DNA of 64,000 nucleotides from an uncultured Bacilli bacterium (lineage in GTDB: Bacteria > Bacillota_I > Bacilli_A > RF39 > UBA660): assembly GCA_934183155.1 (NCBI GenBank), contig CAKPSB010000002.1, forward strand, positions 64,834 through 128,833, in the 5' to 3' direction. The position numbers were made by a program, and so were the translations under genes. Below are positions 1,601-25,051 of the stretch, one piece after another. Each line of letters starts with the position of its first letter. The first letter of the stretch is position 1. Below the pieces are notes generated by a model. That model saw only the letters and a program-made list of their open reading frames with translations. It was not told the origin of the DNA and ran no database searches.

Positions 1601-1764
1601 CCTTTTATTAAATTATCAATTTAATAAAATAAACACTTGTGCGGTTTAGAATAATCAAGTAAAATGTATATCTTTTTTGAAAAAACGAACGCTTATTAAA
1701 AACAATTGGTTGATAAAAAGATAACAAATTTAGGCAACAATCATACAATATTTTAGGTGATAAA

Positions 1765-2148
1765 ATGAACAATTTAAAAGTCGTAATCGACGCAGGACAT
1801 GGAGGCACAGATAGTGGTGCGGTAAGTGGAAATGTAAAAGAAAAAGATTTAACGTTAATGATTTCAAAATATATGCTTGAACAATTTAAAAATAAAGGAA
1901 TAGATTCTACCTTAATTAGAAATACAGATGAAAGTATTTCACCAGCTGAAAGAACAAAAAGAATATTAGATGCCTATGGTGATAAGTCCAATGTTATAAT
2001 AATTTCTAATCACATTAACGCATCTGGTGCGAATGGTAAGAATGTAGGCAAAGCAAGTAGTGTCTTGTTTGCTTTAAAACAAAAGAATTTTGGCTCAATG
2101 TTGAAATTCTTTTTTTGTATATCGTTAAAAAGTTTGTTTCGTAGTTAA
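1765..2148 (+). pseudogene. 5′ fragment of an N-acetylmuramoyl-L-alanine amidase gene (Amidase_3) interrupted by the integrative element; host-derived sequence ends near 2030, after which the reading frame runs into element DNA
   Basis: 'VVIDAGHGGTDSGA' and 'HINA' Amidase_3 motifs are present; the catalytic Glu region (GAEVY) is missing here and appears at 11731-11740 in the same frame after the GGTGC core. Confidence 0.65.
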
Positions 2149-2212
2149 TATATGAAGAATAATCGTAATAATTTGACATTTTTATAAAAAAATTACTCTG
2201 TATCGTAATAAA

Positions 2213-2241
2213 TTGACAAAAATTAAATATAGTATTATAAT
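2213..2241 (+). promoter_or_regulatory. consensus sigma-A-type promoter (TTGACA-17-TATAAT) driving the cargo genes
   Basis: TTGACA at 2213-2218, 17-nt spacer, TATAAT at 2236-2241; preceded by two direct copies of ATCGTAATAAWTTGACA at 2162-2178 and 2202-2218. Confidence 0.5.
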
Positions 2242-2267
2242 GTATATATAAGAAAGGAAGATGGATT

Positions 2268-3464
2268 ATGGTTATTCGTGAAAGATATTTAAAATTAATA
2301 AGACCATTTTATGATCAAGAGTTAATTAAAGTGTTAATTGGTATTAGACGTTCTGGAAAATCAGTTATTTTAAAACAAATAATAGATGAGCTAAAAGAAA
2401 ATAATGTTGATGATAATCATATTATCTATATTAACTTTGAAGATTACGATTATGAGGAATATACTGATCCTAAAAAGTTAAACAATTATGTTAAAGAAAG
2501 AATAATTGATGATAAAAAATATTATATATTCTTTGATGAAATTCAAAATGTTGATAAATGGGAAAAAGTTGTTAATTCATTAAGAGCAACAAAGAACACA
2601 TCTATTTTTATAACTGGTTCTAATAGTGATTTATTATCTAGTGATTTAGCAACCCATATTGCAGGAAGATATGTTAGTTTTAAAATAACTCCATTTACAT
2701 TTGATGAAGTTTGTAAATTATTAAATATTACAGATAATAGAGATATTGAAGATGCATTTAATGATTATATTAAATGGGGTGGAATGCCACAAAGATTTAT
2801 GCAAAAAGATGACATTTCAAGAAAAACTTATTTAAATGATATTTATGATTCAATAATAATAAAAGATATCGTAAAAAGATTTAATATTAAAGATATTGAT
2901 TTGTTAAATAGAATAGTTACTTATATTTTAACTACTCCATCTCAAGTATTTTCACCTGATAGTTTAAAAAAATATATGCAAAGTGATTCTAGAAATGTAT
3001 CATTAGAAACATTATATAATTATCTTGATTATATAACTCGTGCAAACCTTATTTCAAAAGCAGAAAGATATGATGTTAGAGGTAAAAGAATTCTTACAGG
3101 TAAATATAAATATTATTTAACTGATTTAGGTTTTACTAATATTTTAAGTGAAGGTAAGAAAGAGCAAATAGGTGCTTATTTAGAAAATATTGTTTATAAT
3201 GAACTAATTGCTAGAGGATATAGTGTTAATATTGGTACATTAGAAAATGGTGAAATAGATTTTATAGCAACAAGGTTCAATGAAAAAATATACATTCAAG
3301 TTACTTATATTTTAAGTGATGAAACAGTAATTGAAAGAGAATTTAATGCTTATAAAAAGATTGAAGATAACTATCCAAAATATGTTCTTTCAATGGATAA
3401 ATTTGATTTATCACAAAATGGAATAATTCATAAAAATATAATTGATTGGTTGTTAAAAAAATAA
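2268..3464 (+). CDS. AAA-family ATPase of the DUF4143 (COG1373) type
   Basis: Walker A 'GIRRSGKS', Walker B 'IFFDEIQ'; characteristic C-terminal DUF4143-like region; RBS GAAAGGAAG. Confidence 0.7.
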   Translation: MVIRERYLKLIRPFYDQELIKVLIGIRRSGKSVILKQIIDELKENNVDDNHIIYINFEDYDYEEYTDPKKLNNYVKERIIDDKKYYIFFDEIQNVDKWEKVVNSLRATKNTSIFITGSNSDLLSSDLATHIAGRYVSFKITPFTFDEVCKLLNITDNRDIEDAFNDYIKWGGMPQRFMQKDDISRKTYLNDIYDSIIIKDIVKRFNIKDIDLLNRIVTYILTTPSQVFSPDSLKKYMQSDSRNVSLETLYNYLDYITRANLISKAERYDVRGKRILTGKYKYYLTDLGFTNILSEGKKEQIGAYLENIVYNELIARGYSVNIGTLENGEIDFIATRFNEKIYIQVTYILSDETVIEREFNAYKKIEDNYPKYVLSMDKFDLSQNGIIHKNIIDWLLKK

Positions 3465-3586
3465 TACAAAAACATGGAATTTCAAATAATTAATTTGATT
3501 AAAGATATATTTTAATTATTAATTAAAATGACATCATGTAATTAAAATGACATCATGTATTTATTTCTATAAGGAGTTGGTTAGAA

Positions 3587-5695
3587 ATGGCAAATAAAAA
3601 TACAAATTTACAAAATGCTAAAAATAAAAAAGATGATGAATTTTATACAACATATGAGGATATCGAAAAAGAAATAATAAATTATAAGATACATTTTAAA
3701 AACAAAACAGTATTTTGTAATTGTGATGATCCATTTGAATCTAACTTTTGCAAGTATTTTTTGAAAAACTTTAATGTATTGGAAATAAAAAGATTAATAT
3801 GTACATCATACTATTCTTCTAAAATTATATCAAAAGAATTAAATTTCTTAAAAAAAGGTGAAAAAAAGTCTAGAACTAAAGGATACGTATTAGATATACA
3901 AAAATTTGTAGATACAAAAGAAGTAATATCAGATGATGTAATTTGTAATTTATTAAAAGAATCAGGCAATATAAAAGAATTAAAAGGTACAGGAGACTTT
4001 CAAAGTGATGAATGTTTAAACTACTTGAAAGAATCAGATATAGTCGTAACTAATCCACCATTTTCTTTATTTAGAGAATTTGTCTCTATTATCATGAAAT
4101 ATAAAAAGAAGTTCTTAATTGTTGGTAATCAAAATGCACTAACATATAAAGAAATATTTCCGTTGATAAAGAATGATGAATTATGGACTGGGTATCAGTT
4201 TGGAGAGATGAAATTTAGAGTGCCCAAAACTTCTAAACCTAGAACTACAAGATACTGGGTTGATGATACAGGACAAAAATGGAGAAGTTTAGGAAATGCA
4301 ATGTGGTTAACAAACATAGATAATGAACGAAGGCATAGAGAAATTAATTTAACAAAAAAATACAATTCAAAAGATTACCCAAAATATGATAATTTTGATG
4401 CAATAAATGTAAAAACAATAAATGACATACCATATGATTACTTTGGTATTATGGGAGTACCAATAACTATTATAAATAGGTATAATAGTGAGCAATTTGA
4501 AATTGTTGGAGAAGCTAATCATGGTTCTGATAATGAATATGATTTATTTAAACCAGTTTTAAATGGAAAGGAATTATATAAAAAAATATTGATTAGAAGA
4601 AGGTGTAAAGAAGTGAAAGAAAAAGAATTTGTTATTTTAGACTTATTTAGTGGTGCAGGTGGTTTTTCTTATGGTATGGAAAAAAACAAACATTTTAAGA
4701 CTGCTATTGCGTTAGATATAAATGAATCTGCACTAAAAACATTTAAACACAATATGCCAAATACAACAACAGTTTTAGGTGATATTACTAATGAAGAAAT
4801 AAAACAAAAAATTATTAAATTAAGCAAAGAGAAAAAGGTTAATATGATTATAGGTGGACCACCATGTCAAGGTTTTTCACTAAAAGGGAAAAAATTAGGA
4901 TTAAGTGATCCAAGAAATTTTTTATTTAACGAATATTTGAATATAGTTGAATCAATTAGACCAGAAGTGTTTGTGATAGAAAATGTAAAAGCATTATTGT
5001 CTACATCATCAGGATGGTTTAAGGAACAAATAATAAATAGAGTAAAAAGTATGGGTTATTATGTTGATTGTGGAATTTTGACAGCATCGGATTTTGGCGT
5101 ACCACAATCTAGACAAAGAGCTATATTTATTTGTTCAAAAAACAAAAAAATTGAATTGCCAACTATACAAAAAAGAAAAAAGGTGACAATTAGAGATGCG
5201 ATATTTGATTTGGCATATTTAAATTCTGGCGATGGAGAATTTGAACAAGAATATATAACATCGCCTATAAGTTCATATCAAAAACTTATGAGAAAAGGAA
5301 GTGTTAAATTATATAATCATAAAGCCTCTAATCATTCTGAGGTTGCAATAAAAAAACTTCAAATGATCCCACCAGAATGTGGTAAAGAACATTTGCCAAA
5401 GGAAATGCTTGGAAAACAAAAATTTAGTGGGACATGGGGGAGATTAAAATGGGACGATGTTTCTCCAACAATTGATACAAGATTTGATGCTTCATCGAAT
5501 GGGACAAATAATCATCCGTTTTTAAACAGGGCAATTACACCAAGAGAAGCGGCTAGAATTCAATCTTTTGACGATAAATTCGTTTTTTTAGGTACAAAAG
5601 TTTGTGTAAGAGAACAAATCGGTAATGCTGTGCCACCTTTATTGGCAAAAGCAATTGCTGATAAAATATATAATGAGATAGGAGTGGAATTATGA
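3587..5695 (+). CDS. bifunctional DNA methyltransferase: N-terminal M.EcoRI-family N6-adenine MTase domain fused to a C-terminal C5-cytosine (Dcm-type) MTase domain
   Basis: N-terminal half carries 'DDEFYTTYEDIE', 'CNCDDPFESNFCKYF' and 'DIVVTNPPFSLFREF', the M.EcoRI-family hallmarks. C-terminal half carries C5-MTase motifs I 'LFSGAGGFS', IV 'GGPPCQGFS', VI 'ENV', VIII 'QSRQRAIF' and X 'GNAVPP'. Confidence 0.8.
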   Translation: MANKNTNLQNAKNKKDDEFYTTYEDIEKEIINYKIHFKNKTVFCNCDDPFESNFCKYFLKNFNVLEIKRLICTSYYSSKIISKELNFLKKGEKKSRTKGYVLDIQKFVDTKEVISDDVICNLLKESGNIKELKGTGDFQSDECLNYLKESDIVVTNPPFSLFREFVSIIMKYKKKFLIVGNQNALTYKEIFPLIKNDELWTGYQFGEMKFRVPKTSKPRTTRYWVDDTGQKWRSLGNAMWLTNIDNERRHREINLTKKYNSKDYPKYDNFDAINVKTINDIPYDYFGIMGVPITIINRYNSEQFEIVGEANHGSDNEYDLFKPVLNGKELYKKILIRRRCKEVKEKEFVILDLFSGAGGFSYGMEKNKHFKTAIALDINESALKTFKHNMPNTTTVLGDITNEEIKQKIIKLSKEKKVNMIIGGPPCQGFSLKGKKLGLSDPRNFLFNEYLNIVESIRPEVFVIENVKALLSTSSGWFKEQIINRVKSMGYYVDCGILTASDFGVPQSRQRAIFICSKNKKIELPTIQKRKKVTIRDAIFDLAYLNSGDGEFEQEYITSPISSYQKLMRKGSVKLYNHKASNHSEVAIKKLQMIPPECGKEHLPKEMLGKQKFSGTWGRLKWDDVSPTIDTRFDASSNGTNNHPFLNRAITPREAARIQSFDDKFVFLGTKVCVREQIGNAVPPLLAKAIADKIYNEIGVEL

Positions 5696-6567
5696 ATATA
5701 GAAATGGCATATTTAATTGGAATGATATTAGGCAATGGAGAAATTCAAAAGGGTAATCACGAAACAATTGTAACTATTGATATACCACATAAAAATTTAT
5801 ATACTGACGATTTTAAGGATGTAAAAATATATGTAAAAGCTAGTATTACTGATATACGAGATATTGTTGAACCACTTATTGGAAGCAACTTAAAACTTAC
5901 ACAGGAAGATAGATCAACTATAATTTCTTTTGTTAAACCGAATGAAGAATATGTAATGAGGCAAATACTGAAATTTGTTGGAAATGGTCGTAAACATTCA
6001 ACTATGGAAATGAATCCCGATTTATTTAGTATGACAAGTGATGAAAAAAAATCATTGCTTAGAGGTATTGCGGATGTTACAGGATATATTAGAAAAAGTA
6101 ACATTGCTTTTGGACAAGAGGGAGCTCATAGAGTGTACATTGAAATTCCGTGTAATTGGAAAATGGTTATTGATATTGCAAACATGTTAAAAGACGTTGA
6201 TATTCCAATTCAAACAATAGATTTTGGACATCCTAATTTTAGAGATAGTAATTTAATAAAGTATAATGAAGGTATGCCTAATTATTGGAAAAAAGAGCAT
6301 CAAATTAAAATATATGCAAATGAATTTTTACCAATTGGGTTTAATATAAAACATAAACAAGAGGCTTTAGAAAAATATAGTGATGAACTTTTAAAACATC
6401 TTAATCCAGAAAAGACTCATAAATATTATTGGGAAAAAAACATAAAGAAAGGTAAAGAAAAGTTAAAACATCCAGGTGAAAATGACCCATCCTTACCTAA
6501 GGAAATACGGGGAAAACATTTTAATTCATGGACAGAGTTAGCAAGGGTATTGGGTTATGATAAATAA
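5692..6567 (+). CDS. hypothetical protein translationally coupled to the methyltransferase (ATGA overlap); candidate restriction/effector component
   Basis: Start overlaps the MTase stop. Two weak LAGLIDADG-like segments ('LIGMILGNGE', 'LRGIADVTG'). No secure family assignment from sequence alone. Confidence 0.35.
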   Translation: MNIEMAYLIGMILGNGEIQKGNHETIVTIDIPHKNLYTDDFKDVKIYVKASITDIRDIVEPLIGSNLKLTQEDRSTIISFVKPNEEYVMRQILKFVGNGRKHSTMEMNPDLFSMTSDEKKSLLRGIADVTGYIRKSNIAFGQEGAHRVYIEIPCNWKMVIDIANMLKDVDIPIQTIDFGHPNFRDSNLIKYNEGMPNYWKKEHQIKIYANEFLPIGFNIKHKQEALEKYSDELLKHLNPEKTHKYYWEKNIKKGKEKLKHPGENDPSLPKEIRGKHFNSWTELARVLGYDK

Positions 6568-7054
6568 TGTTTCTAAAGAAATTGAATTGTATGAGCCAAT
6601 GAGAAAATGGTTGCAAAAATATTTAGAGGAAAAGTATAAAAATGCTGAAGTAATAACTATTGATTCACATGCTAGAACTTTAGATTCATATTTGAATCAA
6701 TTTGGCTTGCTTGATCAATATCCTCTAACTGTTGGGCTAGACATTCAGGTAGATGTTTTAGGTATAGTAAAGTACAAGAATAGTACTAATCTTATTTTCA
6801 TTGAGGCAAAAAAGACGCAACTTAATCTTCATGATTTGGGACAATTATGGGCTTATTGTAAGTTGTGTGATCCTCTTGAGGCCTTTCTACTATCATCATA
6901 TGGATTGGGAAGTTTAAACAAATTATTCAATAATTTATTGAGAGATGATTTATTAGATTTTGGTGATGGTAAAAAGATTAAAAAAATGCAAGTTGGGAAG
7001 TGGAATATTATAACTAACAATATAGATTATAATTCGTTAATTCCTAAAATTTAG
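6557..7054 (+). CDS. small PD-(D/E)xK nuclease-fold protein (putative)
   Basis: 'GLDIQVDVLG…IFIEAKK' fits the D…(D/E)xK restriction-endonuclease-like pattern; overlaps the upstream gene by 11 nt. Confidence 0.4.
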   Translation: MINNVSKEIELYEPMRKWLQKYLEEKYKNAEVITIDSHARTLDSYLNQFGLLDQYPLTVGLDIQVDVLGIVKYKNSTNLIFIEAKKTQLNLHDLGQLWAYCKLCDPLEAFLLSSYGLGSLNKLFNNLLRDDLLDFGDGKKIKKMQVGKWNIITNNIDYNSLIPKI

Positions 7055-7092
7055 TAGTTATACTATTACATGGATGAGGTAGGAGATGAAAT

Positions 7093-9234
7093 ATGGAATT
7101 ATTTTTAAAAAAAGTTGAAAACGCATTTGGAATTAAAAGTTTACATTTAAATTTGGAAAATGATAAGAAAATGTATCAAGAATTAATATATTCTAAAAAT
7201 GGTTCTTTTAAAACTTCTTTTTCAAATACTTTATATAATTTAAGTAATGGTACGTTAGAAAATGTATTTGATAGATTAACAGATGAAAAAGCTATTTTAG
7301 ATATATCTATTTTAGAAAATGGTAAAGAAATAAAAAATTTTGACAATCGATTTGTTGTTTTTTCTAGAGAAATATATGAACAGCATTCTAAATTATTGTC
7401 TGATTATAGTTCTGAATTAGAGACACTTACTATCGATAAAAAAAATAGTGAATATATAAATGAATTATTAACTGAGGAAACTATAGAAATCAAATTACAG
7501 ATTGATAATTATTTAAAAGGTACTGGTTTAAACTTTGAAATATTACTTGATATGTTTTCTAATTTAGAAGATGGATACTTAGATAGAATAATTCAATTAC
7601 TGAATACAATTATTAATCATGAAGCTCAAGACATTAGTGAAATAAATATAAAAAAAATATATCAGAAAGCATATGATATTGTTGATCAGAGCGAATTTCA
7701 AAGCAAAATATCAAATTACATTCAGGTATTAGAAAATAAAATTAATGCTCAACTTTTTGACAAAAATTTTAACGAAAATAATTGCTTACAGTTTATAAAT
7801 AATGTTGATAAAGCAAAATATTTATCAGAAACAAAATCTAGGGGCTTATTTTTAAAAGATAAAGTATACTATGATATTGACGAAGTAAAAAAAATATTTG
7901 AAGAAGAAATTAAAAAAATATCAAAAGACCCTGAAATAATTGAACAAAGTAAAGAAATTACTAAATTAATGGGAACTGCTAAAGAATCTGAGTTTTTAAA
8001 AGAATCAATTCAAAAAAACCCTTTGCTTGTTAAACAGTTATCTGCTGGTAGAAAAAATATTCTTTTATCATATTTAAAATCTTCAAGTATAGATTACAAT
8101 TATTGGTTAGAAGTTGTAAAAAAAGCAAAAAAAGAATTAAATAATGTTTTAAAAATTGCGCAGGATAAACAAACGAATTTTGAACGTGCAATTGAAATAT
8201 ACAAAAATAGATTTCATCCAATTTTTGACATCAAAATAGTTAATAAGGCAGAGTCCATGTTAGGCATAAAAACTCCTACTATTACTTTTTATCATAATAG
8301 ATATTGTGAGATTCCTGTCTCAGAAACAAAATTAAGCCAAATTTTATCTTCTGGAGAAAAAACAACGCTTAATATATTAAAATTTATAGTTGAATATGAA
8401 AATTGCAAAAAATATCACCCATTTATAATTTTAGATGATATCGTAGAAACTTTTGATTATTCCAATCGCTATGCTTTTATGGAATACATAAATGATTTAG
8501 TAAATTTGGATGTTCCAACAATTGTTATGACGCATAATTTTGAATTTTATAGAACAGTTAGTAAAAGAATACCAAAATTAAGAAAAAGTGTTGCATCTGC
8601 CAACTCTAACGGCGTTGTAGATATTCAAACTAATAATCGAATTAACAAAAACATGGAAAATGTTTTAAAGTGCTCAAATATTTATGATTTCTTTTGTGCC
8701 ATTCCATATTTAAGAGAAATTAAAACAATTTTATTGGAAGACACCAAAACATTAGATTCGTGCCTTCATTACAAAGAAAACACTTCTAAATTACAAATTA
8801 AAGATATATTATTACAATTTCCAAGTAATGCTATAAAAAGTCTTAAAATAGATGAAAATGATATTTACATGGAAAAGTTGTTTGAAATAGCAGACAATTT
8901 ATCTGGATTTGATGATTTTGATATTGTAAAAAAAACAATTTTATCACTTTCTTGCAGACTTTTAATAGAAAGAAAAATAATTGCAAACAATTTTAATTTA
9001 TTAACTAATATTAATACGAATCAAACTGCACAGCTTCTTGATTTATACGGTGAAAAGTTATTTCCAAATGTAAAAAAATATCTTGAAGCAGTACAGTTAT
9101 CAACACCTGAGTTTATTCATGCTAATGCATTTATGTATGAACCATTAATTGACATAAATGGAAAATACTTGTTTGAATTATATAATCAAATTAAAAAAAT
9201 ACCTGATGAAAAAATATGGAAAAATAAAAATTAA
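7093..9234 (+). CDS. SMC/RecF/ABC-fold ATPase with a long coiled-coil-like insertion, a degenerate Walker A and an uncharacterised ~230-aa C-terminal domain (defence-associated)
   Basis: N-terminal 'SKNGSFKTS' (degenerate GxxxxGKT); signature-like 'LSSGEKTTLNIL'; Walker B/D-loop 'FIILDDIVETFD'; H-loop 'IVMTHNF'. Confidence 0.5.
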   Translation: MELFLKKVENAFGIKSLHLNLENDKKMYQELIYSKNGSFKTSFSNTLYNLSNGTLENVFDRLTDEKAILDISILENGKEIKNFDNRFVVFSREIYEQHSKLLSDYSSELETLTIDKKNSEYINELLTEETIEIKLQIDNYLKGTGLNFEILLDMFSNLEDGYLDRIIQLLNTIINHEAQDISEINIKKIYQKAYDIVDQSEFQSKISNYIQVLENKINAQLFDKNFNENNCLQFINNVDKAKYLSETKSRGLFLKDKVYYDIDEVKKIFEEEIKKISKDPEIIEQSKEITKLMGTAKESEFLKESIQKNPLLVKQLSAGRKNILLSYLKSSSIDYNYWLEVVKKAKKELNNVLKIAQDKQTNFERAIEIYKNRFHPIFDIKIVNKAESMLGIKTPTITFYHNRYCEIPVSETKLSQILSSGEKTTLNILKFIVEYENCKKYHPFIILDDIVETFDYSNRYAFMEYINDLVNLDVPTIVMTHNFEFYRTVSKRIPKLRKSVASANSNGVVDIQTNNRINKNMENVLKCSNIYDFFCAIPYLREIKTILLEDTKTLDSCLHYKENTSKLQIKDILLQFPSNAIKSLKIDENDIYMEKLFEIADNLSGFDDFDIVKKTILSLSCRLLIERKIIANNFNLLTNINTNQTAQLLDLYGEKLFPNVKKYLEAVQLSTPEFIHANAFMYEPLIDINGKYLFELYNQIKKIPDEKIWKNKN

Positions 9235-9642
9235 TGGTTAAAAAACAATGTTTTTTTACATAATTTTGTCATTTTCGTTTACTTAATAACGTTCTCTTTT
9301 TTGACATTGACTTCTAATTTATTTACGATATAATTATTATAATATAGCAATAGTTCTAGGATATGAACTATTAGATGCTAAAATACTATATTCAGTTTAT
9401 GAGTATAGTATTTTTTTGTAAGGAGGAATTGTTATCTAAAATTATATAAACAAAAAGTATGTACCAAGAAATTATAAAAAAATAAATAATTAAGGTACCT
9501 AAAAAAGTTGGTTTATGTGTGAAAAGAGGTTCATAATTAGCAATTTTGTTAATCCAAAAGTATGTCATTTGTATAACCGTTTGTGTGTCTAACTGCTATT
9601 TTTGATACAAAATTTGCTATTTTTAGTTAACCCAATAGTATG

Positions 9643-9746
9643 ACATTTATTTTAATGTATGACAAAGTAGTCTTTCACAATCCCTTTAAAATAGGGCTAA
9701 ACTCCCCACTGGGAAGTTGTTTGTCAGCCATCCTTATCCTGCTAAA
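9643..9746 (+). ncRNA. candidate structured RNA/DNA element inside the island's non-coding region (function unknown)
   Basis: Locally GC-rich. Outer inverted repeat TGACAAA…TTTGTCA encloses two hairpins (CCCT-ttaaaat-AGGG and TCCC-cact-GGGA). No ORF. Confidence 0.25.
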
Positions 9747-9924
9747 AACAAACACGCGGAATATTTAGAAAATTAGAGAATTAAAGTCATAAGTTATGTA
9801 CCCAATTTTATATAAAAACAATAAAAAAATTTATTAAGGAGGAGTGATTTATAAGATGTAAAAGTAATATAAATTTAAGTTTTAGGAATATATTTAAGTA
9901 TGAAACCAAAAGGGGTAGATTGGT

Positions 9925-10110
9925 ATGATAATAACTGAAACTTTTAAAAATGGTGGTAAAGATATTGGGGCTTTATTACAAGAATATGTATGCTTAATAC
10001 TTAAATATAAAGATGAAAATGGTAAAATAGATGACACAAATGATGGTAAGAGAGTTATAATGGAATCGGCAAACAAGATGCTATGCAAAAGAAAGGAGAA
10101 TAATGTATAG
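9925..10110 (+). CDS. small hypothetical protein overlapping the recombinase start; possible accessory or directionality factor
   Basis: 61-aa ORF preceded by GGGG RBS-like sequence; stop overlaps the recombinase ATG. Confidence 0.25.
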   Translation: MIITETFKNGGKDIGALLQEYVCLILKYKDENGKIDDTNDGKRVIMESANKMLCKRKENNV

Positions 10111-11677
10111 CACAGTAAAACCGCCATCATTTTATAATGTAGGAATATATATAAGATTATCGCAAGAAGATGAGGATAAAGCACATAAAAGAGAGTCTGA
10201 AAGCGAAAGTGTATTAAATCAAAGAAGTTTACTTATGAACTTTTTGAGGGATAATGGATTTGTTTTAACTGATGAGTATGTTGATGATGGATATTCAGGT
10301 ACTAACTTTGATAGACCAGCATTTAAAAGATTACTTGAAGACATAGAAAAAGGAAAAATAAATTGTGTCATAACTAAAGACTTATCAAGATTAGGTAGAG
10401 ATTATATCAAATGTGGTTATTATATAGAACAATATTTTCCATTAAAGAAAGTTAGATATATATCTATACTAGATAATGTAGATACTTTTCTAGATTCTGC
10501 AAATAATGATATAGCACCTTTCAAAGCTTTATTTAATGATATGACTAGTAAAGATACATCAAAGAAAATAAAATCAATATTAAGAGATAAAAAAGTGAAA
10601 GGTAAGTTTATAGGTAGTAAACCCAGTTTTGGCTATATGAGAGATCCACTTGATAAAGGACATCTAGTGCCAAACCCAGACACAGCATGGATAGTAAAAA
10701 GAATATTTAATGAAGTATCAAGAGGAGATAAAATATCAGATATAATTGAAAGATTAAATAATGAGAATATTCCAACACCAAGTGCATATAAACAAATAAA
10801 AAAATCAAAAAGACAAATAAATGGATATATTTGGACTTGTAGTACGATTAACAAAATATTAAAAAATAGAATGTATACTGGTGATATGATTCAAAATGTT
10901 CAGACAAAATTAAACTATAAATCACAAAAGAGAATATGTCTTTCTAGTGAATATTGGATAATTGTAGAAAATACTCATGAACCATTAGTAAATAGGGTAA
11001 TATTTAATCAAATACAGACAAGTGCTAATAGAACTAGAACAGTAAAATTAAACCGTCCACAGAGGCTATTAGAGGGCTTACTTTATTGCAAAGAGTGTGG
11101 TAATAAGCTAACGGTTAGTTATAGGGAAAAGCGCAATTACTGGTCTATAAATTGCAATAAATATTCTAGAAGTCCAAGACAAAGATTATGTGAACCACAT
11201 TTTTCAGAATATAATAGTTTTGAAAAAATAATTTTAAATCAAATCAAAAAAACTTGTAAAAAATATATAGAAAAAGTTGACATTGATAGTTTAGTATCTA
11301 ATATAAAAAGTGAGAAGGATAACAAGGAAGATTTGATTATAGAAAAACAAAAATTAGAAAGTAATATCAAAGAACTACAACTAAAAATAGATGCTTTATA
11401 TGAAGATAAATATAATGGGATAATCTCAGTTGATACTTATACAAGATTATCTTCTAATACAGAAAATCTAATAAGAACATACAACTCTAGAATAAAAGAA
11501 TTAGAAAATTCTATTAATGAAGTTCCTAAAAAACATAATGATGAAGAAATAAAACAAAAAATAAAAGAATTAATTAGTATGAAAAAACCTACTAGAGAAT
11601 TATTATTTATACTAGTAGATAAAATAATTGTTGATAAAGATAAAAATGTAGAAATAATATATAATTTTAATAAATAA
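10103..11677 (+). CDS. large serine recombinase (resolvase/invertase N-terminal catalytic domain, recombinase domain, zinc ribbon and coiled-coil)
   Basis: 'VGIYIRLSQED', 'YVDDGYSGTNFDRPAFKRLLEDI', 'ITKDLSRLGRD', Cys-rich 'CKECGNKL…C' zinc ribbon, C-terminal coiled-coil; 524 aa. Confidence 0.85.
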   Translation: MYSTVKPPSFYNVGIYIRLSQEDEDKAHKRESESESVLNQRSLLMNFLRDNGFVLTDEYVDDGYSGTNFDRPAFKRLLEDIEKGKINCVITKDLSRLGRDYIKCGYYIEQYFPLKKVRYISILDNVDTFLDSANNDIAPFKALFNDMTSKDTSKKIKSILRDKKVKGKFIGSKPSFGYMRDPLDKGHLVPNPDTAWIVKRIFNEVSRGDKISDIIERLNNENIPTPSAYKQIKKSKRQINGYIWTCSTINKILKNRMYTGDMIQNVQTKLNYKSQKRICLSSEYWIIVENTHEPLVNRVIFNQIQTSANRTRTVKLNRPQRLLEGLLYCKECGNKLTVSYREKRNYWSINCNKYSRSPRQRLCEPHFSEYNSFEKIILNQIKKTCKKYIEKVDIDSLVSNIKSEKDNKEDLIIEKQKLESNIKELQLKIDALYEDKYNGIISVDTYTRLSSNTENLIRTYNSRIKELENSINEVPKKHNDEEIKQKIKELISMKKPTRELLFILVDKIIVDKDKNVEIIYNFNK

Positions 11678-11730
11678 AAGGTTAGTTAATACCTGCCTAC
11701 ATTCCACGACTTCGGGGGAGGAGAAGGTGC

Positions 11731-12661
11731 TGAAGTAATATACGCTTTAAGAGATAATAGTAATTTAGCAAAAAATATATTAACCTCATTAGGAAATGCT
11801 GGCCAAAAAATGAGAAAATATTTTCAAAGAAGATTACCAAGTAATACATCAAAAGATTATTACTTTATCCACAGAAATACAGGTCAAAATACAAAACCAG
11901 TAATTGTAGAATATGGTTTTATTGATAATCCTAAAGATTTAGCAAAAATTCAAGAAAATTATAAAAAATATGTTGATGCAGTGGTTGATGCAGTCATAAA
12001 AACTTATGAAGGTAAAACAATAGAAAACTTACCATCAAATGGAAAATATTATACAGTAAAAGCAGGCGATAGCCTATGGAAAATCGCTAAAGAAAATAAT
12101 ACAACAGTAGATGAAATTAAAAAATTAAATAACTTAAAATCCAACAATTTAGTAGTCGGTCAAACATTAAAATTAAGTGAAAAAACAAATGACAGCGATA
12201 AATATATTGTAATGAGTGGCGATAGTCTATGGAAAATCGCCAACCAATATGGTCTTACCGTAAATCAGTTAAAACAATTAAATAATTTAACAAGCGATAA
12301 TCTAGAAATTGGCCAAGAATTAAAAATAAAAAACAATATGGCAAAAGATGAGACAAATATATATACAGTAAAAGCAGGCGATAGTCTATGGAAAATTGCA
12401 AGCCAATATGGTCTTACCGTAAATCAGTTAAAGCAATTAAATAATTTAACAAGTGATAATTTAGAAATTGGCCAAAAGTTAAAAATAAAAAACAATATAT
12501 CAAAAGATGAGACAAATATATATACAGTAAAAGCAGGTGATAGTCTTTGGAATATTGCAAACAGATTCAAAACAACTGTTAATGAATTAAAAAAGTTAAA
12601 TAATTTAACTAACAATTATTTAACAATAGGACAAACATTAAAAATTCCAACTACCGATTAA
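11731..12661 (+). pseudogene. 3′ portion of the interrupted amidase gene: remainder of the Amidase_3 domain plus four LysM repeats. The amidase frame is open upstream through element DNA from 11690 (stop codon at 11687-11689); the six-frame-track ORF starts at an internal ATG at 11810
   Basis: 'GGGEGAEVIYALRDN…', 'YYFIHRNTGQNTKPVIVEYGFIDNPKD'; four LysM motifs 'YTVKAGDSLWKIA…'. Confidence 0.65.
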
Positions 12662-20005: not shown

Positions 20006-21802
20006 ATGAAGAAAAAAGGATTTACATTAATAGAATTACTAGCAGTAATAACTATATTAGGAATTATATTATTAATAATAGTTCCAAACGTTACGGGTAT
20101 GTTAAACCGTTCAAAAGGAAGAATAAATGAAGAACAAAAAAGAGCATTAATAGATAGTGCCAAAAAATGGGGGACAAACAATTTATTACTCAAAAACGGT
20201 AAAGCGTATTATAATAACAATCAAAAAAGATATGTAACCTTAGGTGAATTAAAAAACTATGGATACCTAGAAGATAAAAAAATTAAAAATTTAATCAATA
20301 AATCAGATATTCCTGATGAAACAAAAATATGTATAAATTATAAAAACAATCAATTTGTCTATTCAATTAATGATGATAATATGTGTGAAAACAATTACCC
20401 TATTATGATGAAAAGAGATACGTCTAAAGCATTCTGGCAATCTGATTATAAAAATAAAATATCTACAGTAGCTGTTCTTGATAATAAAAACGTTCCTTCA
20501 ACTGTAGTAGCATCATGGGATGTATCAGAGAAACAAAACAAATCAGTTATGGCTTGGATTATAGATGATCCAAATAATAGCGGTATGTATAAGCTTTATA
20601 TTGGTGGTGATGGAGGAGTTGCTGCACCAGCTGATTCAAGTAATTTATTTGATGGGGGTATCGAAGGCCAAGAAGAAAATTTTGGTAAAACAAAGACAAT
20701 GAATTTAGCAAAATTAGATACATCAAGAGTAACAAATATGGAGGGGATGTTTGCTGGTTGTGGTTCTCTTACGAACTTAGATGTAAGTAACTTTGATACA
20801 AGCAAAGTAACAAATATGAGTTATATGTTTTCTGGCTGTGAGTCTCTTACCAGCTTAGCTTTAAATAGCTTCGATACAAGCAAAGTAACAGATATGAGTG
20901 GTATGTTTAGCTATAATTCTCTTACAAGTTTAGATGTAAGTAACTTTAATACAAGCAATGTAACAAATATGGCTTCTATGTTTAGGTACTGTAGTTCTCT
21001 TACCAACTTAGACATAAGTAACTTTAATACAAGCAAAGTAACAGATATGAGTGGTATGTTTAGCGATAGTTCTTTTACCAGCTTGGATTTAAGCAACTTT
21101 AATACAAGCAAAGTAACAGATATGAGTCGAATGTTTTATAATTATAGGTCTCTTACAAGCTTAGATTTAAGTAATTTTAACACAAGTAATGTAACAAATA
21201 TGAGTTATATGTTTGGCAGTTGTGGTTCTCTTACCAGCTTGGATTTAAGCAACTTTAATACAAGCAAAGTAACAAATATGGAAGCTATGTTTGATAGTTG
21301 TAGGGCTCTTACCAGCTTGGATTTAAGCAACTTTAATACAAGCAAAGTAACAAATATGTATTATATGTTTTATGACTGTAGTTCTCTTACAAACTTAGAC
21401 GTAAGTAACTTTAATACAAGCAAAGTAACAGATATGGGTTATATGTTTTTTCGCTGTAGTACTCTTACCAGCTTAGATTTAAGTAAATTTGATACCAGCA
21501 ATGTAGCAAATATGAGTGGTATGTTTAATTATTGTAGTTCTCTTACCAACTTAGATGTAAGTAACTTTAATACAAGCAAAGTAACAGATATGGGTTATAT
21601 GTTTAGGTATTGTAAATCTCTTACCAACCTAAAATTGTGTTCATTTGATACTTCTAAAGTAACAAATATGTATTCTATGTTTGAGGGTACTTCAAAATTA
21701 ACTAAAGTTTATGTTGGACCTAAATGGACAACGGCAAATGCTACTACAACTAGTATGTTTACTAGGAGTGGAGTATCAGCAGTAACAACAAATCAATGTT
21801 AA
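20006..21802 (+). CDS. prepilin-type N-terminal domain fused to a BspA/DUF285 leucine-rich-repeat surface protein (paralogue 1; ~13 repeats of 26 aa)
   Basis: 'MKKKGFTLIELLAVITIL' class-III signal; repeats 'SLTSLDLSNFNTSKVTNMSYMFxxC'; conserved C-terminus '…VSAVTTNQC'. Confidence 0.75.
   Translation: MKKKGFTLIELLAVITILGIILLIIVPNVTGMLNRSKGRINEEQKRALIDSAKKWGTNNLLLKNGKAYYNNNQKRYVTLGELKNYGYLEDKKIKNLINKSDIPDETKICINYKNNQFVYSINDDNMCENNYPIMMKRDTSKAFWQSDYKNKISTVAVLDNKNVPSTVVASWDVSEKQNKSVMAWIIDDPNNSGMYKLYIGGDGGVAAPADSSNLFDGGIEGQEENFGKTKTMNLAKLDTSRVTNMEGMFAGCGSLTNLDVSNFDTSKVTNMSYMFSGCESLTSLALNSFDTSKVTDMSGMFSYNSLTSLDVSNFNTSNVTNMASMFRYCSSLTNLDISNFNTSKVTDMSGMFSDSSFTSLDLSNFNTSKVTDMSRMFYNYRSLTSLDLSNFNTSNVTNMSYMFGSCGSLTSLDLSNFNTSKVTNMEAMFDSCRALTSLDLSNFNTSKVTNMYYMFYDCSSLTNLDVSNFNTSKVTDMGYMFFRCSTLTSLDLSKFDTSNVANMSGMFNYCSSLTNLDVSNFNTSKVTDMGYMFRYCKSLTNLKLCSFDTSKVTNMYSMFEGTSKLTKVYVGPKWTTANATTTSMFTRSGVSAVTTNQC
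20690..21660 (+). repeat. tandem 78-bp coding repeats (26-aa DUF285/BspA LRR units) in paralogue 1
   Basis: Periodic 'agcttagat(g/t)taagtaactttaatacaagcaaagtaaca(a/g)atatg' units. Confidence 0.8.
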
Positions 21803-21835
21803 ATAATAAAATTAATAAAAAGTTGAGGTTATAAA

Positions 21836-23782
21836 ATGAAGAAAAAAGGATTTACATTAATAGAATTACTAGCAGTAATAACTATATTAGGAATTATATT
21901 ATTAATAGTAGTTCCAAACGTTACGGGTATGTTAAACCGTTCAAAAGGAAGAATAAATGAAGAACAAAAAAGAGCATTAATAGATAGTGCCAAAAAATGG
22001 GGGACAAACAATTTATTACTCAAAAACGGTAAAGCGTATTATAATAACAATCAAAAAAGATATGTAACCTTAGGTGAATTAAAAAACTATGGATACCTAG
22101 AAGATAAAAAAATTAAAAATTTAATCAATAAATCAGATATTCCTGATGAAACAAAAATATGTATAAATTATAAAAACAATCAATTTGTCTATTCAATTAA
22201 TGATGATAATATGTGTGAAAGCAATTACCCTATTATGATGGCAAGAGATAGGTCTAAAGCATTTTGGCAAAGTACATATAAAGATAAAATATCTACAGTA
22301 GATGTTCTCGATAATAAAAACGTTCCTTCAACTGTAGTAGCATCATGGGACGTATCAGAGAAACAAAATAAATCAGTTATGGCTTGGATTATAGATGACC
22401 CAGATAATAGTGGTATGTATAAACTTTATATTGGTGGTGATGGAGGAGTTGCTGCCCCAACTAATTCAAATGGGTTATTTGGTGGATATAATTCTAATTT
22501 TAGTAAAACAAAGACAATGAATTTAACTAATTTAGATACATCAAGAGTAACAAATATGATAATGATGTTTTATGATTGTAGTTCTCTTACCAGCTTAGAT
22601 TTAAGTAATTTTGATACAAGTAATGTAACAGATATGAGTAATATGTTTTATAAATGTAGTTCTCTTACGAACTTAGATATAAGTAATTTTAATACAAGCA
22701 AGGTAACAAATATGGATACTATGTTTTATGGTTGTAGTTCTCTTACTAGCTTAGACGTAAGTAACTTTGATACAAGAAATGTAACAGATATGAGCTGGAT
22801 GTTTAGTGGGTGCAGTAAACTTACCAACTTAGATGTAAGTAATTTTAATACAAGCAAAGTAACATCTATGAGTAGTATGTTTTCTGGTTGTAGTTCTCTT
22901 ACCAGCTTAGACGTAAGTAAATTTGATACAAGCAAAGTAACATCTATGAGAAGTATGTTTTCTGGTTGTAGTTCTCTTACCAGCTTAGACGTAAGTAAAT
23001 TTGATACAAGCAAAGTAACAAATATGAGTTATATGTTTTTCTTTTGTAGTTCTCTTACCAGCTTAAATGTAAGTAATTTTAATACAATCAAAGTAACAGA
23101 TATGAGTTTTATGTTTTCTGATTGTAAATCTCTTACAAACTCAGATGTAAGTAACTTTGATACAAGTAAAGTAAAGAATATGAGTGGTATGTTTAGGTAT
23201 TGTAGTTCTCTTACCAGCTTAGATGTAAGTAACTTTGATACAAGCAAAGTAACAAATATGGACAGTATGTTTCTGGGCTGCAGTAAACTTACCAGCTTAG
23301 ATTTAAACAACTTTAATACAAGCAAAGTAACGGATATGTTCCAAATGTTTACTCATTGTAATTCTCTTAAAAATTTAGATATAAGTAAATTTAATACGAG
23401 CAATGTAACAGATATGGGTTCTATGTTTTATGGCTGCAGTAAACTTACAAATTTAGATGTAAGTAACTTTAATACAAGCAATGTAACAAGTATGTTCCAA
23501 ATGTTTAGTGGGTGTTGGGCTCTTACCAGCTTAAATGTAAGCAACTTTGATACAAGCAAAGTAACAAATATGAGTTATATGTTTATAGCCTGCAGTAAAC
23601 TTACCAGCTTAAAATTGTGCTCATTTGATACATCTAAAGTAACGACAATGAATTCTATGTTTTATGGTACTTCAAAATTAGCTAAAGTTTATGTTGGATC
23701 TAAATGGACAACGGCAAATGCTACTACAACTAATATGTTTACTGGTAGTGGCGTATCAGCAGTAACAACAAATCAATGTTAA
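21836..23782 (+). CDS. prepilin-type N-terminal domain fused to a BspA/DUF285 LRR surface protein (paralogue 2; ~15 repeats)
   Basis: First ~630 nt >95% identical to paralogue 1; identical 33-bp upstream spacer. Confidence 0.75.
   Translation: MKKKGFTLIELLAVITILGIILLIVVPNVTGMLNRSKGRINEEQKRALIDSAKKWGTNNLLLKNGKAYYNNNQKRYVTLGELKNYGYLEDKKIKNLINKSDIPDETKICINYKNNQFVYSINDDNMCESNYPIMMARDRSKAFWQSTYKDKISTVDVLDNKNVPSTVVASWDVSEKQNKSVMAWIIDDPDNSGMYKLYIGGDGGVAAPTNSNGLFGGYNSNFSKTKTMNLTNLDTSRVTNMIMMFYDCSSLTSLDLSNFDTSNVTDMSNMFYKCSSLTNLDISNFNTSKVTNMDTMFYGCSSLTSLDVSNFDTRNVTDMSWMFSGCSKLTNLDVSNFNTSKVTSMSSMFSGCSSLTSLDVSKFDTSKVTSMRSMFSGCSSLTSLDVSKFDTSKVTNMSYMFFFCSSLTSLNVSNFNTIKVTDMSFMFSDCKSLTNSDVSNFDTSKVKNMSGMFRYCSSLTSLDVSNFDTSKVTNMDSMFLGCSKLTSLDLNNFNTSKVTDMFQMFTHCNSLKNLDISKFNTSNVTDMGSMFYGCSKLTNLDVSNFNTSNVTSMFQMFSGCWALTSLNVSNFDTSKVTNMSYMFIACSKLTSLKLCSFDTSKVTTMNSMFYGTSKLAKVYVGSKWTTANATTTNMFTGSGVSAVTTNQC
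22520..23650 (+). repeat. tandem 78-bp coding repeats in paralogue 2
   Basis: Same unit as paralogue 1; it also produces the spurious antisense ORFs listed in the track. Confidence 0.8.
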
Positions 23783-23815
23783 ATAATAAAATTAATAAAA
23801 AGTTGAGGTTATAAA

Positions 23816-25051
23816 ATGAAGAAAAAAGGTTTTACATTAATAGAATTACTAGCAGTAATAACTATATTAGGAATTATATTATTAATAGTAGTTCCAAACG
23901 GTACGGGTATGTTAAACCGTTCAAAAGAAAGAATAAATGAAGAACAAAAAAGAACATTAATGGATAGTGTTAAAAAGTGGGGGACAAGTAACTTAACGCT
24001 TAAAAATGACAGAGTATATTATAATAATAGTCCCAAATCGTATGTTACTATAGGTGAGTTAAAAAACTATGGATATTTAGAAGATAAAAAAATTAAAAAT
24101 CTAACTAATAAATCAGACATTTCGGATGAGACAAAAATATGTATAAATTACAAAAACAATCAATTTGTCTATTCAATTAATGATGATAATAAGTGCAAAA
24201 ACAATTACCCTATGATGATGGAAAGAGATGTGTCTAAAGCTTTTTGGACTTATGAGTCAAGAATATCTACTATAGATGTTCTTGACAATAAAAGCGTACC
24301 CAATAATGCAGTAGCATCATGGGACGTATCAGAGAAACAAAATAAATCAGTTATGGCTTGGATTATAGATGATCCAAATAATAGTTATATGTATAAACTT
24401 TATATTGGTGGTGATGGTGGTGTTGCCGCCCCAGCTGATTCATATTCATTATTTGGTGGGTATGAAAGTAGTTTTGATAGAACAAAGACAATGAATTTAG
24501 CAAAATTAGATACATCTAAAGTAGCAAATATGAGCGAAATGTTTGCCTATTGTAATTCTCTTACCAGCTTAGATGTAAGTAACTTTGATACAAGTAATGT
24601 ACTAAATATGCGTGCTATGTTTGCCGGTTGTAATAATCTTACTGATTTAAATATAAGTGGCTTTGATACAAACAATGTAAAGAACATGGCATATATGTTT
24701 TATAATTGTAATTCCCTTAAAACTTTAAATTTAAGTTCATTTGATACATCTAAAGTAATATATATGGATAACATGTTTTACAATTGTAATTCCCTTACAA
24801 GCTTAGATTTAAACAACTTTAATACAAGTAGTGTAACAATTATGGATTCAATGTTTGCCGAGTGTAGTTCTCTTACAAGCCTAAAATTATGTTCATTCGA
24901 CACATCAAAAACAACCATAATGAGTTATATATTCAGTGGCACTTCAAAATTAACTAATGTTTACGTTGGAAGCAAATGGAAAACTGTAGCTACAGCAACT
25001 AATATGTTTACTGGTAGTGGCGTATCAGCAGTAACAGAGGGTCAATGTTAA
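23816..25051 (+). CDS. prepilin-type N-terminal domain fused to a BspA/DUF285 LRR surface protein (paralogue 3; ~6 repeats)
   Basis: Same N-terminal module and same upstream spacer; shorter repeat array; ends '…VSAVTEGQC'. Confidence 0.75.
   Translation: MKKKGFTLIELLAVITILGIILLIVVPNGTGMLNRSKERINEEQKRTLMDSVKKWGTSNLTLKNDRVYYNNSPKSYVTIGELKNYGYLEDKKIKNLTNKSDISDETKICINYKNNQFVYSINDDNKCKNNYPMMMERDVSKAFWTYESRISTIDVLDNKSVPNNAVASWDVSEKQNKSVMAWIIDDPNNSYMYKLYIGGDGGVAAPADSYSLFGGYESSFDRTKTMNLAKLDTSKVANMSEMFAYCNSLTSLDVSNFDTSNVLNMRAMFAGCNNLTDLNISGFDTNNVKNMAYMFYNCNSLKTLNLSSFDTSKVIYMDNMFYNCNSLTSLDLNNFNTSSVTIMDSMFAECSSLTSLKLCSFDTSKTTIMSYIFSGTSKLTNVYVGSKWKTVATATNMFTGSGVSAVTEGQC
24500..24930 (+). repeat. tandem 78-bp coding repeats in paralogue 3
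   Basis: Same unit as paralogue 1, more divergent. Confidence 0.7.

Follow-up and report, generated by a model that had tools for sequence, protein, structure and literature searches.

A block of five co-directional genes on a mobile element of an uncultured gut Bacilli bacterium, represented by a metagenome-assembled genome, raises the question of which of these genes belong together and what they do. The block lies in a 64,000-nucleotide (nt) stretch of contig CAKPSB010000002.1 (the whole stretch is termed the window herein, and coordinates are window positions), on which open reading frames (ORFs), domains, gene junctions, and promoters were checked. A sequence-only reading of the window had proposed that all five genes form one undescribed defence cassette linked to restriction-modification (R-M). 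The genes encode, in order, an AAA ATPase of the DUF4143 kind (gene 1), a bifunctional DNA methyltransferase (MTase; gene 2), a 291-amino-acid (aa) protein of LAGLIDADG fold (gene 3), a 165-aa PD-(D/E)xK nuclease (gene 4), and a 713-aa ATPase resembling ABC and SMC proteins (gene 5). Our analysis makes it probable that genes 2 to 4 (3587-7054) constitute a self-contained Type II-like R-M system, with a LAGLIDADG subunit as the reader of the DNA sequence and a PD-(D/E)xK subunit as the cutter. Genes 1 and 5 are separate single-gene defence candidates that share a small defence islet with this three-gene core.

Genes 2 to 4 and their linkage across phyla

All five ORFs lie on the plus strand behind a consensus promoter, TTGACA-17-TATAAT, which matches at 12 of 12 positions, just as the sequence-only reading had described them, and the tight coupling that it saw in the last four genes was found again in the sequence. 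The stop codon of gene 2 and the start codon of gene 3 share an ATGA (5692-5695), genes 3 and 4 overlap by 11 nt (ATGATAAATAA, 6557-6567), and a 38-nt gap with a ribosome-binding site (RBS; GGTAGGAG) precedes the start of gene 5 at 7093. The promoter is the sole 12/12 match within 1700-12000; promoter-like sites in this AT-rich DNA (25 to 30% GC) occur at chance level (83 found, 83.0 expected). Genes 1 and 2 are spaced by 122 bp. Since this gap holds a tandem repeat (TAATTAAAATGACATCATGTA, two copies) just before the RBS of the MTase gene, together with a weak promoter-like site with a TG extension (3528-3556), genes 2 to 5 may also be transcribed on their own. Judged by its position, the TAATTAAAATGACATCATGTA repeat is possibly an operator or the core operon's own promoter. 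In the aligned intergenic regions upstream of the MTase genes of relatives, neither a conserved operator nor a counterpart of TAATTAAAATGACATCATGTA was found.

Gene 2 encodes, in one polypeptide, an M.EcoRI-family N6-methyladenine (m6A) domain (Pfam EcoRI_methylase, aa 7 to 333, ∼nt 3605-4585, E = 4.3e-120) and a Dcm-type 5-methylcytosine (m5C) domain (Pfam DNA_methylase, aa 350 to 695, ∼nt 4634-5671, E = 2.2e-70). Its catalytic motifs NPPF, FSGAGG, GGPPCQ, ENV, QSRQR, and GNAVPP are intact, and the fusion that had been read from the letters is thereby confirmed. PADLOC matches labelled DISARM or Druantia were only generic m5C MTase models (DrmMII and DruM) on the MTase domain. None of the five proteins matched a PADLOC signature protein of BREX, DISARM, Lamassu, Gabija, or PrrC/RloC, in agreement with the earlier statement that the block is none of these.

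The gene 3 and gene 4 proteins had no match in Pfam, NCBIfam, PADLOC, or PHROGs, and for gene 3 this included Pfam LAGLIDADG, helix-turn-helix (HTH), and LAGLIDADG_WhiA at E ≤ 0.01. A phmmer comparison of both proteins with PDB chain sequences returned nothing useful; only fold comparison gave assignments. By this comparison, the 291-aa protein is a monomeric double-LAGLIDADG fold with no PD-(D/E)xK structural matches, and the 165-aa protein has a PD-(D/E)xK fold. The sequence-only reading had picked out two faint LAGLIDADG-like segments and no clear family for the former, correctly on both counts. Its PD-(D/E)xK call for the latter, made from a D…EAK signature, is borne out by the fold and by residues D66, E83, and K85 (D66-X16-E83-A-K85), which are invariant among close homologs.

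Gene linkage was counted in 83 distinct loci, with denominators of 72, 80, 59, or 55 depending on the feature. In 72/72 loci, the LAGLIDADG gene has homologs of both MTase domains on its upstream side, encoded by one fused gene in 35 and by two genes in 37; on its downstream side, 79/80 loci have a PD-(D/E)xK gene. A short overlap, of a few nucleotides, joins the two endonuclease genes in almost every case. The 291-aa family comprises ∼1,900 and the 165-aa family ∼2,600 clusters at 90% identity, all of them labelled "hypothetical." At 67 to 87% identity, the 291-aa family was found in at least 240 species genomes, and its hosts span at least eight phyla (Bacillota, Bacteroidota, Alphaproteobacteria, Spirochaetota, Synergistota, Saccharibacteria, Desulfobacterota, and Melainabacteria); one locus (L011) is 100% identical to the window. 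The same trio also occurs on phage genomes and viral contigs. Cultured carriers are Lactiplantibacillus plantarum P9, [Ruminococcus] torques ATCC 27756, R. albus 8, and Haloimpatiens lingqiaonensis KCTC 15321. The minimal carrier is plasmid p9 of L. plantarum P9 (6,495 bp; L091, NZ_CP060181.1), which has the fused MTase, the LAGLIDADG gene, and the nuclease gene, the rest of its genes being Rep, DUF536, and an adjoining YafQ toxin, with neither ATPase. NZ_CP141333.1 (8,781 bp) is a second cultured minimal carrier of the three-gene system. An extra ORF of 111 to 113 aa, with no family match, stands between the m5C MTase and LAGLIDADG genes in 12/72 loci (L001, at 9653-9988 of that locus; L002 to L007; L016; L026; L029; L073; and L089) and is absent from the window.

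When 1.84 billion representative proteins were searched with a profile, 305 were found to be related to the LAGLIDADG protein. All 18 relatives of 539 to 557 aa proved to be single-chain LAGLIDADG::PD-(D/E)xK fusions, in which a LAGLIDADG domain with a CxxC...CxxC insert is followed by a linker of ∼60 aa and a C-terminal nuclease domain; the latter matches the profile of the 165-aa family at 1e-9 to 1e-23. Metagenomic loci encoding such fusions number 344. Judged by these fusions, the gene 3 and gene 4 proteins appear to be parts of one enzyme. Four longer relatives (P0332, P0339, P0341, and P0366; 991 to 1,299 aa) show a further architecture on the reader module: an acid-less LAGLIDADG domain and its tail form the C terminus, preceded by ∼700 to 1,100 aa without a Pfam match.

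In the fused clade (L093 to L172), 63/80 loci have a free second nuclease-like ORF of ∼165 aa right after the fused gene (for example, 3902-4399 of L095), and the third gene, after this paralog, is a DNA MTase in all 60 loci examined for it (49 with N6_N4_Mtase and 11 with MT-A70). In two viral loci (L181 and L182), an unfused pair with 52 to 57% identity comes after a TaqI/Eco57I-type N6 MTase and an N6_N4 MTase. A scan of viral contigs for a third clade (unfused, ∼300 to 320 aa) yielded no loci. Five MTase families thus surround one endonuclease family, and the pair stands beside DNA MTases in every clade. Such swapping of MTase partners is a modular signature typical of R-M systems.

Recognition and cleavage

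Homing endonucleases carry a metal-binding D or E at the end of each LAGLIDADG helix. In the window protein, these positions are N15 and T130. Among aligned relatives, the first site is R, N, K, S, or G and never D or E (36 informative sequences; R is the commonest), and the second is A, T, C, G, or S and again never D or E (56 informative sequences). Since both metal-binding acids are lost, the gene 3 protein most likely only reads DNA sequence. The nuclease shows the opposite state: the fused clade keeps the D, the ExK, and a Q of the nuclease domain in 79 to 80 of 80 sequences. Its free paralog is degenerate, with the E changed to N in 57/63 and the K never present, and from these replacements it appears to be a conserved but catalytically dead pseudo-nuclease. 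As the paralog is degenerate, each system has exactly one intact PD-(D/E)xK site.

In the system that we propose, the fused MTase would place m6A and m5C on host copies of a probably asymmetric target and so protect them. The 291-aa subunit, an inherently asymmetric two-domain reader with lost catalysis, would bind unmethylated sites. The 165-aa subunit, a minimal nuclease without a recognition domain, would be made together with the reader via the 11-nt gene overlap, be recruited into a complex with it, and cut unmethylated DNA. The presence of two unlike MTases in each unfused-clade system suggests an asymmetric site with strand-specific methylation, as in BsrDI and BtsI. The core has the marks by which Type II R-M is recognised, namely, MTases with intact motifs, linkage of endonuclease and MTase genes, and a nuclease fold with conserved catalytic residues. 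The sequence-only reading went too far in denying it a canonical R-M organisation, since this is a Type II organisation in which the endonuclease has two subunits and the MTase two activities; its peculiarity lies in the large subunit's fold.

Several observations weigh against this proposal. Cutting of both strands is not readily accounted for by one intact PD-(D/E)xK site in each system; the small subunit may dimerise as FokI does, the system may only nick, or a rewired second site may reside in the LAGLIDADG subunit. Near-invariant residues of the gene 3 protein (D128, R147, H180 in GHPNxRD, and E202-H203 and K206 in (K/R)EHQxK), kept across clades of <40% identity with different MTase partners, are odd for a pure specificity module and could, from their conservation pattern, mark such a rewired active site. 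The 291-aa model has a predicted local distance difference test score (pLDDT) of <50 over about 18% of its length, and the hairpin with the residues just named falls within this part. K-mer counts in the window and 1.15 Mb of related loci, made without control genomes, revealed generic palindrome depletion only: the observed/expected ratio of GAATTC was 0.70, like that of many other palindromes, and GAATGC, GCAATG, and GCAGTG were not depleted. No LAGLIDADG-fold component of a restriction endonuclease (REase) was found in the literature or in Pfam, NCBIfam, PADLOC, or PHROGs, a search that had REBASE outside its range, so that a characterised enzyme of this kind is possible. Finally, the proposal as a whole is a computational one.

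The first two of these points would be accommodated by an R-M system with two different active sites, in which the LAGLIDADG subunit nicks one strand, through a rewired site built from D128, R147, H180, E202, H203, and K206, and the PD-(D/E)xK subunit cuts the other. This arrangement would mirror the division between subunits in BtsI, BsrDI, and BspD6I; the large subunit of BtsI and BsrDI nicks alone, and the small subunit adds the second site. We nevertheless consider it unlikely. Both canonical metal ligands are missing in every relative examined, an equivalent loss abolishes cleavage in WhiA, the hairpin with the candidate residues is modelled with low confidence, no known nuclease motif matches these residues, and FokI-like dimerisation of the small subunit offers a simpler path to double-strand cleavage.

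A second alternative takes the 165-aa protein as a complete homodimeric Type IIP REase and the LAGLIDADG protein as a WhiA-like controller of the operon. Functional REases of ∼160 aa do exist (PvuII has 157 aa), and the tandem repeat upstream of the MTase gene could be the controller's operator. Against this, there would be no reason for the LAGLIDADG::nuclease fusions (18 clusters and 344 loci) if the protein did no more than regulate, the presence of two chemically unlike MTases indicates an asymmetric site that a homodimer would not read, and the gene overlap suggests stoichiometric co-synthesis. In addition, neither an HTH nor the WhiA C-terminal domain was detected with Pfam, and 291 aa is far from the usual size of R-M controller proteins, which typically have ∼80 to 100 aa. 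We therefore give this alternative very little credence and retain the two-subunit endonuclease, with a LAGLIDADG reader and a PD-(D/E)xK cutter, as the preferred interpretation.

Flanking ATPases and the carrier element

Pfam confirmed gene 1 as a DUF4143 AAA ATPase (AAA_14, 2.7e-37; DUF4143, 7.7e-17). For gene 5, the motifs that the sequence-only reading had named were verified by inspection: the Walker A is degenerate (SKNGSFKTS), and the signature (LSSGEKT), Walker B (FIILDD), and H-loop (MTHN) are kept. Its match to SMC_N is weak (1.7e-7) and under the Pfam cut-off. Gene 5 also matches phrog_38705, a family of unknown function, at 2.6e-38. A PADLOC scan, which matched neither gene 3 nor gene 4, assigned gene 1 to PDC-S01 (PDLC04787; 6.2e-150, covering residues 1 to 397 of 398) and gene 5 to PDC-S46 (PDLC05023; 1.5e-98, covering residues 6 to 703 of 713). 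The PADLOC PDC entries are unvalidated single-gene candidates found by guilt-by-embedding. Genes 1 and 5 are neighbours rather than components of the R-M core, and, given these full-length matches, the description of the block's components as undescribed holds for genes 3 and 4 and lapses for genes 1 and 5.

The positions of these features are collected in Table 1.

TABLE 1 Features of the five-gene block and its carrier element (window positions)
Feature	Position	Strand	Evidence or proposed role
5' half of split Amidase_3/LysM cell-wall hydrolase gene	1765-2040	+	Amidase_3 profile positions 1-83 of 174
Sigma-70-type consensus promoter TTGACA-17-TATAAT, 5' of gene 1	2213-2241	+	12/12 match
Gene 1, AAA_14/DUF4143 ATPase	2268-3464	+	Pfam, PADLOC; neighbour outside the core
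Tandem 19-21-nt repeat, two copies, directly 5' of MTase RBS	3518-3567	+	Repeat search, sequence read
Gene 2, bifunctional DNA methyltransferase	3587-5695	+	Pfam, motifs, linkage; modification component of the core
Gene 3, 291-aa LAGLIDADG-fold protein without canonical catalytic acids	5692-6567	+	Proposed large, DNA-recognition REase subunit
Gene 4, 165-aa PD-(D/E)xK nuclease	6557-7054	+	Proposed small, catalytic REase subunit
Gene 5, 713-aa ABC/SMC-like ATPase, unknown C-terminal domain	7093-9234	+	PADLOC, PHROGs; neighbour outside the core
Large serine recombinase	10103-11677	+	Pfam Resolvase, Recombinase, and Zn_ribbon_recom; phrog_95 integrase, 4.7e-93
3' half of split amidase gene	11698-12661	+	Amidase_3 profile positions 132-173 and four LysM

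That all five genes work as one ATPase-assisted, R-M-linked defence system appears highly improbable to us, even though they are co-directional behind a perfect promoter, with only 38 nt before gene 5. The five-gene cassette fails when its conservation is examined, because the ATPases seldom adjoin the core: adjacency was counted in 4/59 loci for PDC-S46 and in 2/55 for a PDC-S01-like gene. Conservation of the block outside this genome, which the sequence-only reading had made the touchstone of its cassette, was thus found for genes 2 to 4 and not for all five. The four loci with PDC-S46, where it stands directly 3' of the nuclease gene, are all closest relatives of the window (L011 to L014), and an AAA_14/DUF4143 gene also lies 5' of the core in L001 to L004 and L022; both arrangements speak for a joint system, as does a PDC-S46 homolog behind another MTase-containing pair (L178). 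Elsewhere, however, the core is flanked by Gabija-like genes, CTD6, an SLFN-type helicase, HNH, or other defence-island genes, several of which occupy the very slot 3' of the nuclease gene, and neither ATPase accompanies the core on the 6.5-kb plasmid p9. PDC-S46 homologs also occur with no MTase nearby or behind a different R-M module, and PADLOC lists both ATPases as stand-alone single-gene candidates.

At L178 (168-8774 of that locus), the PDC-S46 homolog (63% identity) lies behind an 838-aa m5C MTase and a 411-aa unknown protein, on an element that carries HTH_36 and a large serine recombinase and looks like the same element backbone with its R-M cargo swapped. Such a locus could mean that PDC-S46 is part of the element or has a tendency to follow R-M modules. 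At L173 (3075-8906), a homolog with 50% identity comes after unknown genes for 715-aa and 205-aa proteins and is directly followed by an Amidase_3 gene, with Abi_2 nearby, again an amidase neighbourhood. A 697-aa gene 3' of the nuclease gene in phage PV036447.1, considered as a further PDC-S46, was rejected, as it is not a homolog.

The element that carries all five genes spans ∼9.7 kb (∼2040-11697) and ends with the serine recombinase, which substantiates the earlier view of R-M-linked defence cargo on a mobile element next to a recombinase. It cleanly splits a chromosomal gene for a cell-wall amidase. In translation, the left junction falls after ...ISNHINA of this amidase, and the amidase frame reopens at ...FHDF|GGGEGAEVIYAL and runs on into four LysM repeats. 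As read from the two junctions, excision of the element would restore the amidase frame as ...ISNHINA | GGGEGAEVIYAL. The split amidase resembles the gene-interrupting elements known from sporulation genes. Among the related loci, a large serine recombinase lies within ∼7 kb of the core in 14/83. The ∼870 bp between PDC-S46 and the recombinase (9235-10110) are mostly non-coding and contain a promoter-like site matching at 11 of 12 positions (9307-9334); a 61-aa ORF at 9925-10110 overlaps the start of the recombinase gene by 8 nt and is possibly a directionality factor. Outside the element, the window holds housekeeping genes. At 20006-25051, it also encodes a tandem series of three DUF285/leucine-rich-repeat paralogs, all of which start with an N_methyl signal like that of type IV pilins.

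Relation to known enzymes and meaning

In organisation, the core comes closest to BtsI and BsrDI, which combine a large recognition subunit with a small PD-Xn-EXK subunit of ∼165 aa (in BtsI, this A subunit comes from a 495-bp ORF and has a mass of 18.6 kDa). The likeness extends to the two MTases for an asymmetric site and to single-chain relatives that look like fusions of the subunit genes. BspD6I and BstNBI are grouped with BtsI and BsrDI as heterodimeric Type IIS/IIT enzymes. The large subunit of BtsI and BsrDI, however, is a PD-Xn-E-X12-QR nuclease with a target recognition domain and nicks alone, whereas that of the window has a LAGLIDADG fold without this motif. The MTases differ as well: the motifs in BsrDI are of the N6-adenine and N4-cytosine kinds, and BtsI has a pair of amino-MTases, compared with the EcoRI-like m6A and m5C domains of the window. 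Because the large subunit of BtsI and BsrDI is a PD-(D/E)xK-type nickase, the core cannot be counted as a member of their type. The proposal that the large subunit is a homolog of the BtsI/BsrDI/BsmI/Mva1269I family was rejected on fold, the two being set apart by fold and not by sequence alignment.

By fold, the gene 3 protein comes closest to LAGLIDADG homing endonucleases and to WhiA (DUF199), the latter a monomeric double-LAGLIDADG protein in which the catalytic acids are likewise replaced (by R and G) and which cannot cleave DNA. WhiA has features of its own, namely, a C-terminal HTH and a conserved housekeeping and sporulation role. The window protein differs from it by its conserved tail, its place in an R-M operon, the overlap of its gene with a nuclease gene, and its fusion to a nuclease elsewhere. 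Compared with homing endonucleases (I-Tsp061I, I-DmoI, and PI-SceI), it has no D or E at the helix ends and no match to Pfam LAGLIDADG, and its gene is not encoded in an intron or intein and is always linked to MTases. With FokI-type Type IIS enzymes, the system shares the placing of recognition and cleavage in separate modules, which the fused clade lines up as reader, ∼60-aa linker, and nuclease. FokI, however, reads with winged-helix domains, whereas the reader here has a LAGLIDADG fold and, in the clade of the window, is a polypeptide separate from the nuclease; the fused clade also has the extra, apparently dead nuclease paralog.

PLD and half-pipe are among the catalytic folds of REases. 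The catalytic cores covered by a 2012 review of homing endonucleases and a 2014 review of Type II REases are PD-(D/E)xK, HNH/beta-beta-alpha-Me, and GIY-YIG. The 2012 review gives REase relatives only for the PD-(D/E)xK, GIY-YIG, and beta-beta-alpha-Me folds of homing endonucleases, and the 2014 review makes no mention of LAGLIDADG. LAGLIDADG is thus the one major homing-endonuclease fold without an REase relative in these reviews.

Taken together, these results make it likely that the three genes form a genuine R-M system, widespread and so far unannotated, whose endonuclease includes a LAGLIDADG-fold subunit without precedent. With somewhat less assurance, we favour the broader view that it represents a cross-phylum REase family in which a domesticated LAGLIDADG scaffold reads the sequence and a PD-(D/E)xK cutter acts in trans or in cis; such enzymes may possibly have unusually long or strictly asymmetric sites and a rewired second active site (GHPNxRD/EHQxK). 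The cultured carriers, in particular plasmid p9, make the system directly testable. LAGLIDADG scaffolds underlie engineered meganucleases, and a natural family that separates reading from cutting and goes with many MTase specificities could supply new restriction or nicking enzymes for asymmetric sites as well as new design rules. The family is abundant in gut, rumen, and environmental bacteria, on plasmids, and in phages, and censuses of R-M and defence systems miss its endonuclease genes because these are invisible to Pfam, NCBIfam, PADLOC, and PHROGs. If the proposal is true, it would add a new protein fold to the restriction enzymes and close the LAGLIDADG gap, provide a natural counterpart of the engineered reader-plus-FokI nucleases, and reveal a second independent domestication of the LAGLIDADG scaffold, after WhiA.

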